64,000 nt of DNA from Eledone cirrhosa (Eukaryota): positions 15,676 through 79,675 of the forward strand of contig CAXHJY010000267.1 of assembly GCA_964016885.1 (NCBI GenBank), read 5' to 3'. The notes under the pieces were generated by a model that saw nothing but the letters and a program-made list of their open reading frames with translations, was not told the DNA's origin and did not search any database. This document shows, piece after piece, positions 22,441 to 62,564 of this stretch. The translations under genes were made by a program, and so were the position numbers. The number at the start of each line of letters is the position of its first letter. The stretch's first letter is position 1.

Positions 22441-22620
22441 GTAGGAAGGCTGCAGTAGAGGTAGACCTAGGTTTAAGAGGAATCTGAGGTGACGTGCAAG
22501 AGAGACGACTGATGAACGCCAGGTAAGAATGTGAAAGAAGCCATTTAAGGCTGTGTACTTCCTATAAGATCTCCCAAGGCCAGCTAAACCATAGTCAATG
22601 CCAGGTTAGAAGGTGAAAGA
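22441..22620 (+). mobile_element. Degenerate RTE-like LINE 3' end carrying a longer relative of the 62-bp monomer
   Basis: GAAGGCTGCAGTAGAGGTAGACCTAGG (EGCSRGRPR) is followed by ...GATCTCCCAAGGCCAGCTAAACCATAGTCAATGCCAGGTTAGAAGGTG, which aligns with the satellite unit. Confidence 0.55.
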
Positions 22621-27800: not shown

Positions 27801-28935
27801 AGACAGTTCGTCAGGAAATTTCACAGCGGCAAACAACACAGCAAGTGACCGAGCAGGACATCTGTAACGAAAATGATATAAGAAAAACTATGAAAGTCAT
27901 TTATATACGTTGTCAATAAAAAAAAAAGTTAAACTTTATTAAATTCTTCCAGTTTTGTCTTTTATTATAAATATATACACATTCAAATATATATACATGT
28001 AAGCACATCAAAGGCTGAGGCCCCAGGTTACGACGTTGAGCAAGGCGTGGTGTTGGGAGGTCGAGCGAAAACATGCCAGACAGTCCTGGTCAAACCAACC
28101 TGTCCGGGTGGCATCAAAGAAGCCAAGTTGGTTCTATGTCACGTAGGTTAAAAGTTAAGCGATATCGATCTAGTTAACACCGATTGCGATGATGATATCT
28201 AAAAATAAAAATTCATTCAAAACTTAAAGATGCTGGTTAATATTAATAACCAGAATATAGCAACCAACATCAGGGTGAACACCTTCCAGTAGTTAGTTGA
28301 TCAACCCTGACTGAAGGAGGTACTGCTAACACTCACCCTGGTCACTTCTGCCAAAGGAGGTACTGCTAAGACTCACCCTGGTCACTTCTGCCAAGGTAAA
28401 GCTGAATATCTTATGGAAAAGAAACTCCATCAGTTTTCCAACAAAGCCAAATATTTAATTATTTCACAGGTAAAGTATGTCTTACATTTACAGGTAGAAA
28501 CAAACAATATTTAATATAGAAAATCTAACAAGATGTCATGAAAAGATATTGATATTATATAAATATTTATTGAGCAGTATCTAATAAAAACAAAAGCCTA
28601 TTCAATATATACAAAGTTTAATATATACACATGTGTTCATATATAAATAAATAGAAACAAAATACTCTATTAAAGGAACAGAAATGGAAAAAAGGGGATC
28701 CGCATCCAACGAAAGGGAGAGGGGGGACATTACAGTCTGAGTCGTTCCTCGCAGACAAAAGGGGAAAGGCTGAGCTGAAATATGTAAGAAACCTGATTCG
28801 AACACAAGTCCTTCAGAAGGTTGCTACGTGTGGTACCCCAGAAGGGTCTCTATGGTGACAACTAACTGCAGCAGTGGCACTACTAGTGGGGAACCACGTC
28901 TGGTTGCATTAGTGTCACCCCAAAGACAGGCTGCT

Positions 28936-31900
28936 AATATATACAAAGTTTAATATATACAAAGTTTAATATATACAAAGTTTAATATATACAAAGTTTA
29001 ATATATACAAAGTTTAATATATACAAAGTTTAATATATGCAAAGTTTAATATATACAAACTTTAATATATACAAAGTTTAATATATACAAAGTTTAATAT
29101 ATGCAAAGTTTAATATATACAAAGTTTAATATATACAAACTTTAATATATACAAAGTTTAATATATACAAAGTTTAATATATGCAAAGTTTAATATATAC
29201 AAAGTTTAATATATGCAAAGTTTAATATATACAAAGTTTAATATATGCAAAGTTTAATATATACAAAGTTTAATATATGCAAAGTTTAATATATGCAAAG
29301 TTTAATATATACAAAGTTTAATATATACAAAGTTTAATATATACAAAGTTTAATATATGCAAAGTTTAATATATACAAAGTTTAATATATACAAACTTTA
29401 ATATATACAAAGTTTAATATATACAAAGTTTAATATATGCAAAGTTTAATATATACAAAGTTTAATATATGCAAAGTTTAATATATACAAAGTTTAATAT
29501 ATACAAAGTTTAATATATACAAAGTTTAATATATACAAAGTTTAATATATACAAACTTTAATATATACAAAGTTTAATATATACAAACTTTAATATATAC
29601 AAAGTTTAATATATACAAAGTTTAATATATACAAAGTTTAATATATACAAAGTTTAATATATACAAAGTTTAATATATACAAAGTTTAATATATACAAAC
29701 TTTAATATATACAAAGTTTAATATATACAAAGTTTAATATATGCAAAGTTTAATATATGCAAAGTTTAATATATACAAAGTTTAATATATACAAAGTTTA
29801 ATATATACAAACTTTAATATATACAAAGTTTAATATATACAAAGTTTAATATATGCAAAGTTTAATATATACAAAGTTTAATATATACAAACTTTAATAT
29901 ATACAAAGTTTAATATATACAAAGTTTAATATATACAAAGTTTAATATATGCAAAGTTTAATATATACAAAGTTTAATATATGCAAAGTTTAATATATGC
30001 AAAGTTTAATATATACAAAGTTTAATATATACAAAGTTTAATATATACAAAGTTTAATATATACAAAGTTTAATATATACAAAGTTTAATATATGCAAAG
30101 TTTAATATATACAAACTTTAATATATACAAAGTTTAATATATACAAAGTTTAATATATGCAAAGTTTAATATATACAAAGTTTAATATATACAAACTTTA
30201 ATATATACAAAGTTTAATATATACAAAGTTTAATATATGCAAAGTTTAATATATGCAAAGTTTAATATATACAAACTTTAATATATACAAACTTTAATAT
30301 ATACAAAGTTTAATATATACAAAGTTTAATATATGCAAAGTTTAATATATGCAAAGTTTAATATATACAAAGTTTAATATATACAAAGTTTAATATATAC
30401 AAAGTTTAATATATACAAAGTTTAATATATGCAAAGTTTAATATATACAAACTTTAATATATACAAAGTTTAATATATACAAAGTTTAATATATGCAAAG
30501 TTTAATATATACAAAGTTTAATATATACAAACTTTAATATATACAAAGTTTAATATATACAAAGTTTAATATATACAAAGTTTAATATATACAAACTTTA
30601 ATATATACAAACTTTAATATATACAAACTTTAATATATGCAAAGTTTAATATATGCAAACTTTAATATATACAAAGTTTAATATATACAAACTTTAATAT
30701 ATACAAAGTTTAATATATACAAAGTTTAATATATACAAAGTTTAATATATACAAAGTTTAATATATACAAAGTTTAATATATGCAAAGTTTAATATATAC
30801 AAACTTTAATATATACAAAGTTTAATATATACAAAGTTTAATATATGCAAAGTTTAATATATACAAAGTTTAATATATACAAACTTTAATATATACAAAC
30901 TTTAATATATACAAAGTTTAATATATACAAAGTTTAATATATACAAAGTTTAATATATACAAACTTTAATATATACAAACTTTAATATATACAAAGTTTA
31001 ATATATACAAAGTTTAATATATACAAAGTTTAATATATACAAACTTTAATATATACAAACTTTAATATATACAAAGTTTAATATATACAAAGTTTAATAT
31101 ATACAAAGTTTAATATATACAAACTTTAATATATACAAACTTTAATATATACAAAGTTTAATATATACAAAGTTTAATATATACAAACTTTAATATATAC
31201 AAACTTTAATATATACAAAGTTTAATATATACAAACTTTAATATATACAAAGTTTAATATATACAAAGTTTAATATATACAAACTTTAATATATACAAAC
31301 TTTAATATATACAAAGTTTAATATATACAAACTTTAATATATGCAAAGTTTAATATATGCAAACTTTAATATATACAAAGTTTAATATATACAAACTTTA
31401 ATATATACAAACTTTAATATATACAAACTTTAATATATACAAAGTTTAATATATACAAACTTTAATATATACAAACTTTAATATATACAAAGTTTAATAT
31501 ATACAAACTTTAATATATACAAAGTTTAATATATACAAAGTTTAATATATACAAAGTTTAATATATACAAAGTTTAATATATACAAAGTTTAATATATAC
31601 AAAGTTTAATATATACAAACTTTAATATATACAAAGTTTAATATATACAAAGTTTAATATATGCAAAGTTTAATATATGCAGAGTTTAATATATACAAAG
31701 TTTAATATATACAAAGTTTAATATATACAAACTTTAATATATACAAAGTTTAATATATACAAAGTTTAATATATACAAAGTTTAATATATACAAAGTTTA
31801 ATATATACAAACTTTAATATATACAAACTTTAATATATACAAAGTTTAATATATACAAAGTTTAATATATGCAAAGTTTAATATATACAAAGTTTAATAT

Positions 31901-33614
31901 ATGCAAAGTTTAATATATGCAAAGTTTAATATATACAAAGTTTAATATATACAAAGTTTAATATATACAAAGTTTAATATATACAAAGTTTAATATATAC
32001 AAAGTTTAATATATGCAAAGTTTAATATATACAAACTTTAATATATACAAAGTTTAATATATACAAAGTTTAATATATGCAAAGTTTAATATATACAAAG
32101 TTTAATATATACAAACTTTAATATATACAAAGTTTAATATATACAAAGTTTAATATATGCAAAGTTTAATATATGCAAAGTTTAATATATACAAACTTTA
32201 ATATATACAAACTTTAATATATACAAAGTTTAATATATACAAAGTTTAATATATGCAAAGTTTAATATATGCAAAGTTTAATATATACAAAGTTTAATAT
32301 ATACAAAGTTTAATATATACAAAGTTTAATATATACAAAGTTTAATATATGCAAAGTTTAATATATACAAACTTTAATATATACAAAGTTTAATATATAC
32401 AAAGTTTAATATATGCAAAGTTTAATATATACAAAGTTTAATATATACAAACTTTAATATATACAAAGTTTAATATATACAAAGTTTAATATATACAAAG
32501 TTTAATATATACAAACTTTAATATATACAAACTTTAATATATACAAACTTTAATATATGCAAAGTTTAATATATGCAAACTTTAATATATACAAAGTTTA
32601 ATATATACAAACTTTAATATATACAAAGTTTAATATATACAAAGTTTAATATATACAAAGTTTAATATATACAAAGTTTAATATATACAAAGTTTAATAT
32701 ATGCAAAGTTTAATATATACAAACTTTAATATATACAAAGTTTAATATATACAAAGTTTAATATATGCAAAGTTTAATATATACAAAGTTTAATATATAC
32801 AAACTTTAATATATACAAACTTTAATATATACAAAGTTTAATATATACAAAGTTTAATATATACAAAGTTTAATATATACAAACTTTAATATATACAAAC
32901 TTTAATATATACAAAGTTTAATATATACAAAGTTTAATATATACAAAGTTTAATATATACAAACTTTAATATATACAAACTTTAATATATACAAAGTTTA
33001 ATATATACAAAGTTTAATATATACAAAGTTTAATATATACAAACTTTAATATATACAAACTTTAATATATACAAAGTTTAATATATACAAAGTTTAATAT
33101 ATACAAACTTTAATATATACAAACTTTAATATATACAAAGTTTAATATATACAAACTTTAATATATACAAAGTTTAATATATACAAAGTTTAATATATAC
33201 AAACTTTAATATATACAAACTTTAATATATACAAAGTTTAATATATACAAACTTTAATATATGCAAAGTTTAATATATGCAAACTTTAATATATACAAAG
33301 TTTAATATATACAAACTTTAATATATACAAACTTTAATATATACAAACTTTAATATATACAAAGTTTAATATATACAAACTTTAATATATACAAACTTTA
33401 ATATATACAAAGTTTAATATATACAAAGTTTAATATATACAAAGTTTAATATATACAAACTTTAATATATACAAACTTTAATATATACAAAGTTTAATAT
33501 ATACAAACTTTAATATATACAAACTTTAATATATACAAAGTTTAATATATACAAAGTTTAATATATACAAAGTTTAATATATACAAAGTTTAATATATAC
33601 AAAGTTTAATATAT
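28936..33614. repeat. 16-bp minisatellite (~290 copies) with an internal 1920-bp duplication
   Basis: Unit AATATATACAAAGTTT with TGC and AAAC variants. Lines from 29941 are repeated at 31861. Confidence 0.97.
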
Positions 33615-33889
33615 AATGTCTTTGAAATGCTCTGCATTATCGATTACTCAAAGGTTAGTGTGTATTAATTTTATATTTCTAATATGAATGTCCATAGGTA
33701 GCTGACATAACTTTAATCATTTATCAATGTTTTAGATCTCTGGAAGGAATACTTGGCTGTAGGCTCAGGTATGATGCAATCATTTGAAAACTTTCACAAA
33801 GGTCCTCCGTCTCTGAGAGGGAGGAGTTGATTGAAATAAAAAATTGCGAGCAATCGAGTGCGAAAAAGCATTTTGGGCACTACCATGCA

Positions 33890-47345: not shown

Positions 47346-47414
47346 GTCCCTCGCAGTATTCTTCTATAAAATTATTGTAAAGCTGCTTTTTTTCCATTTA
47401 ATATTTAAAAAGGT

Positions 47415-48558
47415 GTAATAAATGTTTCTACTTTTGGCACAAGGCCAGCAATTACCCCAGTGTATTACTGGTACTTTATTTTATCAACCCTGTAATAATT
47501 GTTTCTACTTTTGGGGGCACAAGGCCAGCAATTACCCCAGTGTATTACTGGTACTTTATTTTATCAACCCTGTAATAAATGTTTCTACTTTTGGCACAAG
47601 GCCAGCAATTACCCCAGTGTATTACTGGTACTTTATTTTATCAACCCTGTAATAATTGTTTCTACTTTTGGGGGCACAAGGCCAGCAATTACCCCAGTGT
47701 ATTACTGGTACTTTATTTTATCAACCCTGTAATAAATGTTTCTACTTTTGGCACAAGGCCAGCAATTACCCCAGTGTATTACTGGTACTTTATTTTATCA
47801 ACCCTGTAATAATTGTTTCTACTTTTGGGGGCACAAGGCCAGCAATTACCCCAGTGTATTACTGGTACTTTATTTTATCAACCCTGTAATAATTGTTTCT
47901 ACTTTTGGGGGCACAAGGCCAGCAATTACCCCAGTGTATTACTGGTACTTTATTTTATCAACCCTGTAATAATTGTTTCTACTTTTGGGGGCACAAGGCC
48001 AGCAATTACCCCAGTGTATTACTGGTACTTTATTTTATCGACCCTGTAATAACTGTTTCTACTTTTGGCACAAGGCCAGCAATTACCCCAGTGTATTACT
48101 GGTACTTTATTTTATCAACCCTGTAATAAATGTTTCTACTTTTGGCACAAGGCCAGCAATTACCCCAGTGTATTACTGGTACTTTATTTTATCAACCCTG
48201 TAATAATTGTTTCTACTTTTGGGGGCACAAGGCCAGCAATTACCCCAGTGTATTACTGGTACTTTATTTTATCAACCCTGTAATAATTGTTTCTACTTTT
48301 GGGGGCACAAGGCCAGCAATTACCCCAGTGTATTACTGGTACTTTATTTTATCAACCCTGTAATAATTGTTTCTACTTTTGGGGGCACAAGGCCAGCAAT
48401 TACCCCAGTGTATTACTGGTACTTTATTTTATCAACCCCGTAAGGATGAAAGGCAAAGTCAACCTCGGCGGGATTTGAACTCAGATCATACAGGGCCGTA
48501 ACTCTGTGCTTCAAAGCATGGCGTCCGACCCTCTACCGATACTGCCAATCCACCGCTC

Positions 48559-50148: not shown

Positions 50149-50584
50149 CATATGTGTATGTGTGAGGGTGTATAAATATATATATATATATAATGTGTGT
50201 GTATACAGCACTTTCAAAATGGTGTAAATGTGATCAACATGGTGGGTTCTCTTTCCCTTTTTTTATTTTCGTTCCCCTTTTTCTAATGAAGGACTTACAT
50301 CTGAAACATTTCCATGTCTCTAAACCATTATCCTTGTCCTTTGTGTTGTTATTTTTATTTGTAATCACACCTATATATATATATATATATATATAGGCGT
50401 ATATATATATGTGTGTGTGTATATATATATATACATATATGTGTGTATATATATACACATACTCTAACACGCTACACCATAACTTATAAGCATGAAAGCC
50501 CCATCCCAACACTTGAAAAGAACCTTTAAATATCCAGGTTCTGGGCGTCTGTTGCAGTGTTGCAGCAAAGAGAAGCATTGTGTC

Positions 50585-51013
50585 CATGTCTGATGACCCT
50601 GTGTATTGCAGGGTCATCAGACATGCATGTCTGATGACCTTGTGTATTGCAGGGTCATCAGACATGCATGTCTGATGACCTTGTGTATTGCAGGGTCATC
50701 AGATATGCTTGTCTGTTGACCCTGTGTATTACAGGGTCATCAGACATGCTTGTCTGATGACCCTGTGTATTGCAGGGTCATCAGACATGCTTGTCTGATG
50801 ACCCTGTGTATTGCAGGGTCATCAGACATGCTTGTCTGATGACCCTGTGTATTGCAGGGTCATCAGACATGCTTGTCTGATGACCTTGTGTATTGCAGGG
50901 TCATCAGACATGCTTGTCTGATGACCCTGTGTATTACAGGGTCATCAGACATGCTTGTCTGATGACACTGTGTATTGCAGGATCATCAGACATGCTTGTC
51001 TGATGATCCTGTG
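50585..51013. repeat. 41-bp palindromic satellite (~10 copies)
   Basis: TGTCTGATGACCCTG-TGTATTG-CAGGGTCATCAGACA; each unit is a hairpin of about 15 bp. Confidence 0.95.
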
Positions 51014-51043
51014 TGTACATAGGTGAAACTCCACGTAAACAAG
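50995..51043 (+). ncRNA. Type I hammerhead ribozyme-like motif
   Basis: CTTGT-CTGATGA-T-CCTGTG-TGTA-CATAGG-T-GAAAC-TCCAC-GT-A|A-ACAAG, with AATAAA at 51061. Confidence 0.6.
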
Positions 51044-51064
51044 ACTCATTACTTAGTCATAATA

Positions 51065-51145
51065 AAACATACACACACATATACACATATATATATATAT
51101 GTGTGTATATATATATGTATACATATATATACACAAAACACATGC

Positions 51146-51176
<31 letters not shown>

Positions 51177-51332
51177 TATATATATATATATATACACAAA
51201 ACACATGCATATATATATATATATACACACACACACATATATATATACACAGACATGTATATATATATACACACACACATATATATGTATACATATATAT
51301 ACACAAACACATGTATATATATATATATACAT

Positions 51333-51369
<37 letters not shown>

Positions 51370-51432
51370 CACACACACACATATATATATATATATACAT
51401 ACACACACACACATATATATATATATATACAT

Positions 51433-51475
<43 letters not shown>

Positions 51476-51643
51476 CATACACACACATATATATATATAC
51501 ATACACACACGTGTATATATATATATACATACACACACATATATGTATATATATATATATATATATTTACATATATATATATATATATATATGTAAATAT
51601 ATATATATACACACCACACACATATATATACGCACACACACTC

Positions 51644-51680
<37 letters not shown>

Positions 51681-52345
51681 TATTCATATATACATATATA
51701 ACTGTTATTTCTAGCAGGTCTAGCTACTATGTAGAGGCACATACACATATAATAAATACACACACATACATACAACAGAAGGATATGATTTGAGGAAAAT
51801 TTGGCTGCTATTTCTAACAGTTTTAGGCGAATACAGTGTTTGATGTGCGGGATGGTGGTGGTGGTTGCTGTTGTTGTTGGTGGTGGTGGGGTGCTGTGTG
51901 TGGTGATGGTGGTGGTGGTGTTTGGTGTGGTGGTGGTGGTGTTTGGTGTGGTGTGGCTGGTGGTGGTGTTTGGTGTGGTGATGGTGGTGGTGGTGGCTGG
52001 TGGTGGTGGTGGTGTTTGGTGTGGTGATGGTGGTGGTGGTGTTTGGTGTGGTGGTGTTTGGTGTGGTGGTGGTGTGGTGATGGTGGTGGTGGTGGTGGTG
52101 TTGGTGGTGGTGGTGTTTGGTGTGGTGATGGTGGTGGTGGTTTCGATGATCGGAGTGGTTGAGAGGGTGCTCTCTTCTGTGGTGATGATGGTGGCGGTGG
52201 TGTTTGGTGTGGTGATGGTGGTGGTGGTGTTTGGTGTGGTGTTGGTGGCGGTGATGTTTGTTGTGATGATGGTGGTGGTGGTGGTGGTGTTGGTGGTGGT
52301 GTTGGTGATAGTGGTGATGCTTGCTGTGTTGGTGGTGGTGGTCTT
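51065..52345. repeat. (TA/CA)n followed by (GGT)n microsatellites
   Basis: Low-complexity sequence. Confidence 0.95.
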
Positions 52346-52719: not shown

Positions 52720-54660
52720 AGTGCATAGCTCGGAGATAAGAGAGTCACTTCATGTAGAGCTGCTAATTCTCTAAATTGAGAGATCACAGCTCTGATACTA
52801 TGGACATGTGGTTAGAATGTCTCAGGAAAGAATCTCTGAATTGAGAGACCACAGCTCTGATACTATGGACATGTGGTTAGAATGTCTCAGGAAAGAATCT
52901 CTGAATTGAGAGATCACAGCTCTGATACTATGGACATGTGGTTAGAATGTCTCAGGAAAGAATCTCTGAATTGAGAGATCACAGCTCTGATACTATGGAC
53001 ATGCGGTTAGAATGTCTCAGGAAAGAATCACTGGATTGAGAGATCACAGCTCTGATACTATGGACATGTGGTTAGAATGTCTCAGGATAGAATCTCTGAA
53101 TTGAGAGATCACAGCTGTGATACTATGGACATGCGGTTAGAATGTCTCAGGAAAGAATCTCTGAATTGAGAGATCACAGCTCTGATACTATGGACATGCG
53201 GTTAGAATGTCTCAGGATAGAATCTCTGAATTGAGAGATCACAGCTGTGATACTATGGACATGCGGTTAGAATGTCTCAGGAAAGAATCTCTGAATTGAG
53301 AGATCACAGCTCTGATACTATGGACATGTGGTTAGAATGTCTCAGGAAAGAATCTCTGAATTGAGAGATCACAGCTCCGATACCATGGACATGTGGTTAG
53401 AATGTCTCAGGAAGGAATCTCTGGATTGAGATATCATAGCTCTGATACTATGGACATATGGTTAGAATGTCTCAGGAAAGAACCTCTGAATTGAGAGATC
53501 ACAGCTCCGATACTATGGACATGTGGTTAGAATGTCTCAGGAAGGAATCTCTGGATTGAGATATCACAGCTCTGATACTATGGACATGTGGTTAGAATGT
53601 CTCAAGAAAGAATCTATGGATTGAGAGATCACAGCTCTGATACTATGGACATGTGGTTAGAATGTCTCAGGAAAGATTCTCTGAATTGAGAGATCACAGC
53701 TCTGATACTATGGACATGTGGCTAGAATGTCTCAGGAAGGAATCTCTGGATTGAGATATCACAGCTCTGATACTATGGACATGTGGTTAGAATGTCTCAA
53801 GAAAGAATGTCTCAAGAAAGAATCTCTGAATTGAGAGATCACAGCTCTGATACTATGGACATGTGGTTAGAATGTCTCAGGAAAGATTATCTGAATTGAG
53901 AGATCACAGCTCTGATACTATGGACATGTGGCTAGAATGTCTTGGGAAAGAATCTCTGAATTGAGAGATCACAGCTCTGATACTATGGACATGTGGTTAG
54001 AATGTCTAGGGAAAGAATCTCTGAATTGAGAGATCACAGCTCTGATACTATGGACATGTGGTTAGAATGTCTCAGGAAAGAATCTCTGAATTGAGAGACC
54101 ACAGCTCTGATACTATGGACATGTGGTTAGAATGTCTCAGGAAAGAATCACTGAATTGAGAGATCACAGCTCTGATACTATGGACATGTGGTTAGAATGT
54201 CTCAGGAAAGATTCTCTGAATTGAGAGATCACAGCTCTGATACTATGGACATGTGGTTAGAATGTCTCAGGAAAGATTCTCTGAATTGAGAGATCACAGC
54301 TCTGATACTATGGACATGTGGTTAGAATGTCTCAGGAAAGAATCACTGAATTGAGAGATCACAGCTCTGATACTATGGACATGTGGTTAGAATGTCTCAG
54401 GAAAGAATCTCTGAATTGAGAGATCACAGCTCTGATACTACAGACATGTGGTTGGAATGTCTCAGGAAAGAATCGCTGGACAGATTTTATGGGCAAAACC
54501 AGGGATAGACCTCGAGCAAGATGGTTGGATAACATCCATGAGCTTTGTGGGTCTCACTTGGGAGATCTAGCTGGATCAGTTGGAGACAGTTGCTTCTGAC
54601 AGGACCCACTGGAGGGAGCGTTTAAGGACTCTGCCCCCATGACCCTCTCAGGAGAGTATC
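52720..54660 (+). mobile_element. RTE-clade LINE 3' remnant with an internal 65-bp satellite (~26 copies, 52775-54475)
   Basis: VHSSEIRESLHVELLIL*IERSQL*YYGHVVRMSQERI (repeated), then AGQILWAKP...RPRARWLDNIHEL...VASDRTHWRERLRTLPP. Confidence 0.88.
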
Positions 54661-62435: not shown

Positions 62436-62564
62436 TTTATTTTATAGAAGGAGCTTCTACAGGACTAGTACTGTTTCATTCAGATGAAATCTTCAGGAGC
62501 TTCCTGAAGATTTCATCTGAATGAAACAGTACTAGTCCTGTAGAAGCTCCTTCTATAAAATAAA
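62436..62564. repeat. Perfect 63-bp-arm palindrome (3-nt loop) containing a hammerhead-like core
   Basis: Left arm 62436-62498, loop GCT, right arm 62502-62564. Contains CTGAAGA-T-TTCA-TC-TGAA-T-GAAAC-AGTACTA-GTC. Confidence 0.9.

Follow-up and report, generated by a model that had tools for sequence, protein, structure and literature searches.

The array of 41-bp hairpin units at positions 50587-50996 of the window, by which we mean the whole 64,000-nt stretch of DNA analysed, is a single-locus minisatellite and not a satellite family. It is probably a ten-unit minisatellite derived from the centre of a head-to-head, hammerhead-bearing retroelement end and grown by tandem duplication at the DNA level. 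An earlier interpretation of this region, made from the letters alone (the sequence-only reading), had described a palindromic 41-bp satellite; the array is real, with ten units from 50587 and a period of 41 by TRF, but the word satellite has to be given up, as the exact unit occurs at 5 places in the array and at 1 place elsewhere in the 3.0-Gb assembly. A relaxed unit motif was found 8 times in the array, once at a locus discussed below (L042) and once in a look-alike (L238), which we discarded as a relative of the array because it stands outside any family context. No other long array was found genome-wide by exact-motif searches and scoring of the best candidates, an approach that decayed arrays may escape.

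The units lie head-to-tail with starts at 50587+41n, and TRF reported 50587-51014 with 10.4 copies and 95% matches. Each unit has the layout TGTCTGATGAC-CCTG-TGTATTG-CAGG-GTCATCAGACA followed by a 4-nt spacer, which is TGCT in 8 of the 10 units, TGCA in 2 and AGCA in none, and the mean pairwise difference among the ten units is 4.8%. Folding of two units gave hairpins of 16-18 bp with z values of -7.1 and -7.8, equalled by 0 of 200 shuffles. None of the ten units contains GAAA, helix III or the cleavage site; the 11th unit start, at 50997, is the only one that runs into GAAAC-TCCAC-GTA-AACAAG and so forms a hammerhead-like arm, referred to below as the last arm. Within the likely centre of the parental junction (Table 1) the order is antisense helix II, antisense core, centre, sense core and sense helix II, and the two helix II copies form a direct repeat, 41 bp apart. 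Junctions 1-9 of the array carry a G/C pair and the last junction an A/T pair of the subfamily-A type, a change that is compensated in both hairpin registers. The array begins at the very axis of symmetry of the centre palindrome (CAGACATG/CATGTCTG in the perfected centre), and the left, antisense tail of the parent is absent.

Table 1. Features of the array locus (positions are those of the window)
Feature	Position	Strand	Remark
Flank Y, not of the retroelement family	50444..50584	+	one other genomic copy (C19)
Ten 41-bp units: sense core, helix II with antisense-type loop, antisense core, asymmetric centre	50585..50996	+	
Likely centre of parental head-to-head junction	50967..51023	+	subfamily-A type
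Degenerate type I hammerhead	50995..51043	+	
Its helix I, 5' strand	50995-50999		
Its CTGATGA	51000-51006		
Its helix II	51008-51023		6 bp, flanked by T/T
Its GAAA	51025-51028		
Its damaged helix III	51028-51036		
Its extra A	51038		
Its helix I, 3' strand	51039-51043		
Element 3' end	51044..51067	+	has the shorter of the two ends seen among family copies
(TA/CA)n microsatellite, likely insertion target	51068..51700	.	like context in most family copies

The 64-kb window consists mostly of tandem repeats. Its other arrays are a 62-bp array of about 300 copies (674-21486), a 16-bp array of 293 copies (28935-33615), an 80-bp array of 13 copies (47414-48443) and a 65-bp array of 26 copies (52768-54478). 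The 80-bp array comes from the end of a common dispersed repeat, which also adjoins many copies of the hammerhead family, and is a second TE-derived minisatellite near the hammerhead array.

The left junction (50551-50616) is present in short-read contigs with 0 differences, and inner and variant units are found there exactly, at a depth about 4-5 times that of single-copy sequence; both observations come from one sample, which may itself be the source of the assembly. The array locus was not covered by the RAD-seq runs. Among the listed short-read pieces none covers 50960-50994 and none bridges 51014-51037 exactly, so that unit 10 and the damaged helix III are without independent confirmation. 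Palindromes are prone to fold-back chimeras during assembly or library construction, and the first of these two stretches lacks read support, yet we assign a negligible probability to an artefact of this kind: the substitutions are unit-specific and follow a five-unit pattern, the left junction and variant units are exact in the short-read contigs at multi-copy depth, and a chimera would not give units of uniform polarity.

The proposal that the unit comes from the 5' half of a hammerhead was borne out, since the core plus helix II runs into GAAAC in 506 genomic copies (exact-motif matches; control, 0). The hairpin was also checked as an independent MITE terminal inverted repeat; it has 1 exact occurrence outside the array and is not dispersed, and the hammerhead origin stands. 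A search for a single-copy parental element, as had been suggested, led elsewhere: the last arm belongs to a dispersed family (596 candidates, the best at 81-89% identity), and flank Y has one other copy. The family shows the type I hammerhead order, with CUGAUGA, GAAA and UA at the cleavage site. In 128 arms from the fetched loci CTGATGA was intact in 101, GAAA in 99 and the cleavage-site TA in 110, counts that are partly circular because the search pattern allowed one change per core part; helix I, which lay outside the pattern, is paired in 88, 80, 82, 75 and 67% at positions 1-5. Helix I has 5 bp, helix II 5-6 bp and helix III 4 bp with a 2-nt loop, and the helix III 10-mer is predicted to pair with itself at -7.2 kcal/mol. 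The G10.1-C11.1 closing pair of helix II is found in only 2 of these 128 arms (GC), the others including CC in 50, TT in 43 and CT in 23. A pyrimidine-pyrimidine mismatch flanks helix II in at least 3 hammerhead-like families of this genome, the two others, judged by eye, having T/T.

Two main subfamilies, A (helix II of 16 nt) and B (helix II of 15 nt), are 75% identical over the arm. The majority differences between them lie in loop II, in the two flanking pyrimidines and downstream, with none in helix I, the core or helix III, and no compensatory pairs were seen between A and B. Most family copies are arms of only 80-140 bp; judged by eye, their ends fall at either of two positions separated by about 50 bp, mostly next to (TA)n or (CA)n. 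The two starts of reverse transcription given in PMC11167929 would match these two end points. The A/B family may already stand in the consensus files of PMC8557442 and PMC4209133. Rfam gave nothing in the window at the gathering score and, at E values up to 10, generic hairpin matches only, with no hammerhead for the window's copy. Loose CTGANGA...GAAA matches also occur in the window at 22509 (+), 60952 (+) and 61232 (-).

Over 50995-51065 the last arm is on average 82.5% identical to 42 A arms vs 75.1% to 72 B arms, and by this comparison we class it as A-like. The sequence-only reading was right that only the last unit continues into GAAAC...AACAAG; that it thereby completes a ribozyme is doubtful in view of its helix III, its extra A and its paired core. 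The family has GAAA-CTC-CA-GAG-TA-ACAAG where the last arm has GAAA-CTCCAC-G-TA-A-ACAAG; CUGAUGA, GAAA and helix II are kept, helix III is cut to 2 bp and an extra A follows GUA. The dimer surface is lost, the self-duplex being predicted at -2.3 kcal/mol in another register vs -7.2 for the family 10-mer, and the folding prediction gives the core an unpaired probability of 0.00 when 25 nt of the array upstream are folded with it. The last arm is therefore probably inactive as a ribozyme, both helix III and the cleavage site being damaged and the core being predicted to pair with the antisense copy upstream. Such locking of the core by an antisense copy would hold in principle for every head-to-head copy of the family.

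The sequence-only reading overlooked that a head-to-head palindrome is a common form of the parent, and that such a palindrome already contains helix II as a direct repeat, spaced by about one unit. Of the first 30 consecutive exact matches on one contig (C1), 16 lie next to an inverted arm, another 3 have an inverted match that is short and distant, and the remaining 11 have neither; an inverted 5'-truncated copy beside a direct copy, a trait of EN+ Penelope elements, is thus present. Exact matches to the head-to-head centre number 31, of which 5 belong to the array and 26 lie outside the window. As the reverse complement of the helix II hairpin differs from it only in the loop, each such palindrome contains helix II in two direct copies; the spacing of this repeat is 36-57 bp in 40 centres from the fetched loci, and 41 bp in two loci, L043 and L050. 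The 41-bp unit is the interval between the helix II copies, that is, helix II, antisense core, centre and sense core. The loop comparison that had been proposed places the unit loop nearer to the antisense arm: it is 2 edits from the antisense form of both subfamilies and 3-4 from the sense forms, including that of the array's own last arm. The unit loop thus appears to be of the antisense type, by a small margin of 1-2 edits.

In 37 centres from the fetched loci, found with a search pattern that admitted centres up to 26 nt, the match to native upstream sequence before the core never exceeds 10 nt, and the turn points peak at 6 and 9 nt before the core, at the A of TTAGTTC. This motif we take to resemble both an initiator and a 3' splice site. 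The sharp turn point may mark the end of the template in the formation of Penelope palindromes.

Other palindromes were also noted. At 62436-62564 the window contains a second hammerhead family, as a 129-bp palindrome (126/129) in which two arms meet head-to-head beside (TA)n; L029 has near-identical copies, related ones occur in L007, in L016 and near Penelope RT fragments, and this family looks younger than the A/B family. Long, near-perfect palindromes (87-99%) unrelated to A/B occur in 3 of the first 30 loci (L002 1-686, L007 108-832 and L025 248-487). Inverted structures seem to be common in this genome.

The polarity of the units bears directly on how the array grew. All 10 loops point one way and 0 of the 10 centres are reversed. 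The sequence-only reading had proposed that a fold-back at helix II was iterated about ten times, and a reverse transcriptase or polymerase might be imagined to have done so in one event, as all units are hairpins with helix II at the closed end and self-priming has been proposed for Penelope elements (PMC3846280). However, iterated fold-back predicts alternating centres and paired loop polarity; in a symbolic simulation the loops came in pairs (++--) and the centres alternated strictly. Derived changes are, moreover, common to all units and absent from the last arm, and variants recur at a five-unit step. Ten rounds of fold-back are contradicted by these observations unless later homogenisation wholly erased the polarity, and we consider them highly improbable. 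The five-unit step is seen in the variant pair C13T/G22A, which occurs in units 3-4 and again in units 8-9, and is typical of block duplication.

Candidate early stages of such growth are present in the same genome. With the unit as query we obtained 43 matches and 22 candidates. Two of these loci, L040 and L042, retain the left arm and carry two extra units and one extra unit, respectively; a third, L041, carries one and has its left arm truncated. Within L040, and likewise within L042, a derived mutation is common to all units, and the duplication therefore came after the mutation, in DNA. From their sequences L040-L042 appear to be independent intermediates.

We envisage the following course of events. 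Insertion of a Penelope-like element into a (TA)n tract would have brought in only its 3' end and, with it, an inverted copy whose turn lies immediately 5' of the ribozyme, a structure that is seen in the family and is postulated for this locus. The helix II hairpin inside the palindrome gives a direct repeat of 15-16 bp, as seen in the family. Slippage or unequal exchange, to name the likely enzymology, would then have duplicated the interval and afterwards blocks of units. Template correction within the hairpins may have produced the paired change from A/T to G/C and the perfected TGCA centres, although conversion from a B copy could also have supplied the G/C pair. In what is the weakest step of the scheme, a break at the axis of the palindrome, perhaps via a cruciform, would have removed the left arm, and the new end would have been joined to flank Y. 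The predicted product is an inactive relic. Head-to-head Penelope palindromes and duplication between short direct repeats are each known (PMC3846280 and PMC3389668, respectively). Against a palindromic parent it must be said that the left arm is missing here, so that the parent is reconstructed and not seen, and that the B-like junctions 1-9 beside an A-like last junction need either a paired change or conversion.

The left end is where a second route has to be weighed. The copy of flank Y on C19 is 95% identical over 152 bp, with homology stopping at 50595, 11 bases into unit 1, and CATGTCTGATG at the left end of the array fits an origin from either the array or flank Y. On C19 (L062 1346-1775) the 140 bp of flank Y are bordered on both sides by a 136-bp stretch, in direct orientation and with 97% identity between its two copies; microsatellite sequence and 4-base overlaps form the joints, and this copy of flank Y reads as a templated insertion that may have been taken from the array locus or from an unassembled third locus. 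Flank Y was rejected as native upstream sequence of the element, as it has one other copy only and the sequence that natively precedes subfamily B is another, C-rich region. The start of the array on the centre axis would fit a break at a hairpin tip. Locus L071 has a like left end, with sense core, antisense loop and no left tail, in a single unit that is joined to another repeat via a short shared stretch; its sequence fits either loss of an arm or a single template switch at helix II, the latter equally well. A single fold-back at helix II may thus have been the seed.

One switch at helix II and one at the centre would turn a solo arm into a small inverted triplication, sense-antisense-sense, with a direct repeat of 26-28 bp that then expanded in tandem; the copier, a DNA polymerase or the element's own reverse transcriptase, would have folded back once and not ten times. 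Under this scheme the missing left arm needs no deletion, L071 provides an example of such a left end with one unit, and 11 of the 30 sampled copies lack an inverted arm. Template switching between strands at a quasi-palindrome would also invert the loop, as observed. Yet the rightmost centres keep the family's CTTGT where the left end has CATGT, which demands one more mutation, no clear microhomology that would serve the second switch is seen in flank Y, the intermediates L040 and L042 keep the left arm, and the exact helix-II hairpin occurs 1 time outside the window vs 26 exact head-to-head centres. We therefore hold the triplication to be unlikely, if worth retaining as an alternative. Tandem expansion is common to the triplication and to the palindromic parent that we prefer. 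More speculatively, helix II may be a recurrent turn-around and slippage point, with single fold-backs by the element's own copying machinery yielding L071-like seeds and thousands of palindromes forming a nursery of palindromic minisatellites, some of which might perhaps yield hairpin RNA against the family; we regard this as a doubtful extension.

The link to Penelope-like elements comes from longer B copies, which reach upstream via the C-rich region (present at 307 candidates) to a decayed reading frame with a Penelope-endonuclease-like end. A (TG)n tract upstream of six exact B copies was considered as native sequence and shown to be target sequence. The endonuclease-like 3' end gave 47 matches, from which 18 loci were fetched; in 8 of these 18, picked for that 3' end, a B ribozyme lies 0.6-1.8 kb downstream on the same strand, and in 3 of the 18 an inverted tail piece lies upstream. 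Several of the 18 show RT or endonuclease similarity to other Penelope-like ORFs of the same genome, the tblastn E values being 3e-28 for L221 and 6e-14 for L220. All ORFs linked to a B ribozyme are decayed, and these fragments, that of L221 included, had no Pfam match above the cut-off; a search for homologues of the L221 ORF returned 2 proteins, both without Pfam matches. The longer copies have the order RT, Cys linker, endonuclease-like region, which fits the Neptune or Nematis clades as described in PMC8557442. These data, gathered for B copies, suggest that the subfamily B arm ends a Penelope-like retroelement. The label Neptune-like for the longer copies is our assumption, drawn from motifs and not from a tree.

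Starting from a Penelope RT fragment near L090, we obtained about 3000 candidates and came to intact RT+GIY-YIG ORFs. Eight long-ORF Penelope loci were inspected as carriers of the A/B ribozyme; none carries it, and they are other families. Locus L182 carries the A/B ribozyme family without a long ORF. A young Penelope family with near-intact RT and GIY-YIG frames was noted at L183 2445-5012 and at L184-L189; the frame of L183 is open for 856 aa, with Pfam RVT_1 and GIY-YIG, and the family has its own hammerhead-like ends, in an inverted arrangement in L186.

The family structure resembles the head-to-head inverted pLTR junctions of Pen2a_Av, Pen2_Av and Pen3a, endonuclease-bearing Penelope-like elements of Adineta vaga (PMC3846280; scheme in PMC8557442), in having an inverted 5'-truncated copy beside a direct one, a palindrome at the junction and an AT-rich target, and in that longer copies have, upstream, an RT, a Cys linker and then an endonuclease-like C-terminal region. 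Unlike those junctions, the centre of the array is amplified in tandem and its left arm is gone, and most family copies are short arms. The ribozymes are like the minimal type I hammerheads of dimer type from metazoan PLEs (Cervera and de la Pena 2014, PMC4209133) in their CUGAUGA/GAAA/UH core, 5-bp helix I, long helix II and very short helix III, whose near-palindromic sequence would allow pairing in a dimer; the same source describes hammerhead pairs on opposite strands 100-700 bp apart, and the dimer background is treated in PMC6765202. They differ in the pyrimidine-pyrimidine flanks of helix II in place of the conserved G10.1-C11.1 and, in the window's copy, in the loss of the dimer surface.

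Minisatellites started between short direct repeats are covered in PMC3389668, with the model of Haber and Louis and the Alu case of Jurka and Gentles. The array shares with the TE minisatellites there its single locus, its origin from part of a transposon, its seed in a short direct repeat and its local duplication; its unit is bounded by a short direct repeat in the parent family and its polarity is uniformly head-to-tail. It is unlike them in that the direct repeat arises by symmetry and the unit is a quasi-palindrome with two hairpin registers. Tandem repetition, a hammerhead sequence and a PLE origin are also features of non-LTR retrozymes and hammerhead satellites (bioRxiv 10.64898/2026.07.22.740005 and PMC6765202), but retrozyme units contain a whole ribozyme in one orientation, whereas the array units contain half a ribozyme locked by its own antisense copy. 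The array is accordingly neither a retrozyme nor a MITE repeat nor a satellite family. The accessible part of PMC9659126, on TE-derived tandem repeats, makes no mention of Penelope or hammerhead, and in the literature searched, which left most subscription papers outside, we found no account of a hammerhead palindrome whose centre had grown into an array.

Both hairpin registers as DNA are at about -18 kcal/mol, and from this folding energy formation of a cruciform or of dsRNA by the array is possible. A retained functional locus making small RNAs against the retroelement family might be supposed, as the fold predicted for a read-through RNA is a long duplex with interruptions (-342 kcal/mol), the longest perfect inverted match is 28 nt and the core is common to hundreds of copies. 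Such a role is nevertheless very unlikely, given that there is one locus only, on an unplaced contig that is mostly tandem repeat, that mismatching mutations build up in the stems, and that no Rfam family is reached at the gathering score. The array remains one decayed locus with no sign of function, for which a function is unlikely.

Its interest lies in how it came about. According to PMC3389668, no more than about 6% of the tandem repeats derived from TEs are accounted for by known mechanisms, and a worked case therefore has some value. The turns within 10 nt of the ribozyme core bear on how Penelope head-to-head junctions form, and that result may outweigh the array itself. A hairpin placed within a palindrome necessarily forms a direct repeat, so that Penelope palindromes with a ribozyme bring a seed for slippage with them, and the intermediates in the same genome show one way in which minisatellites start, by a locally recurrent route.
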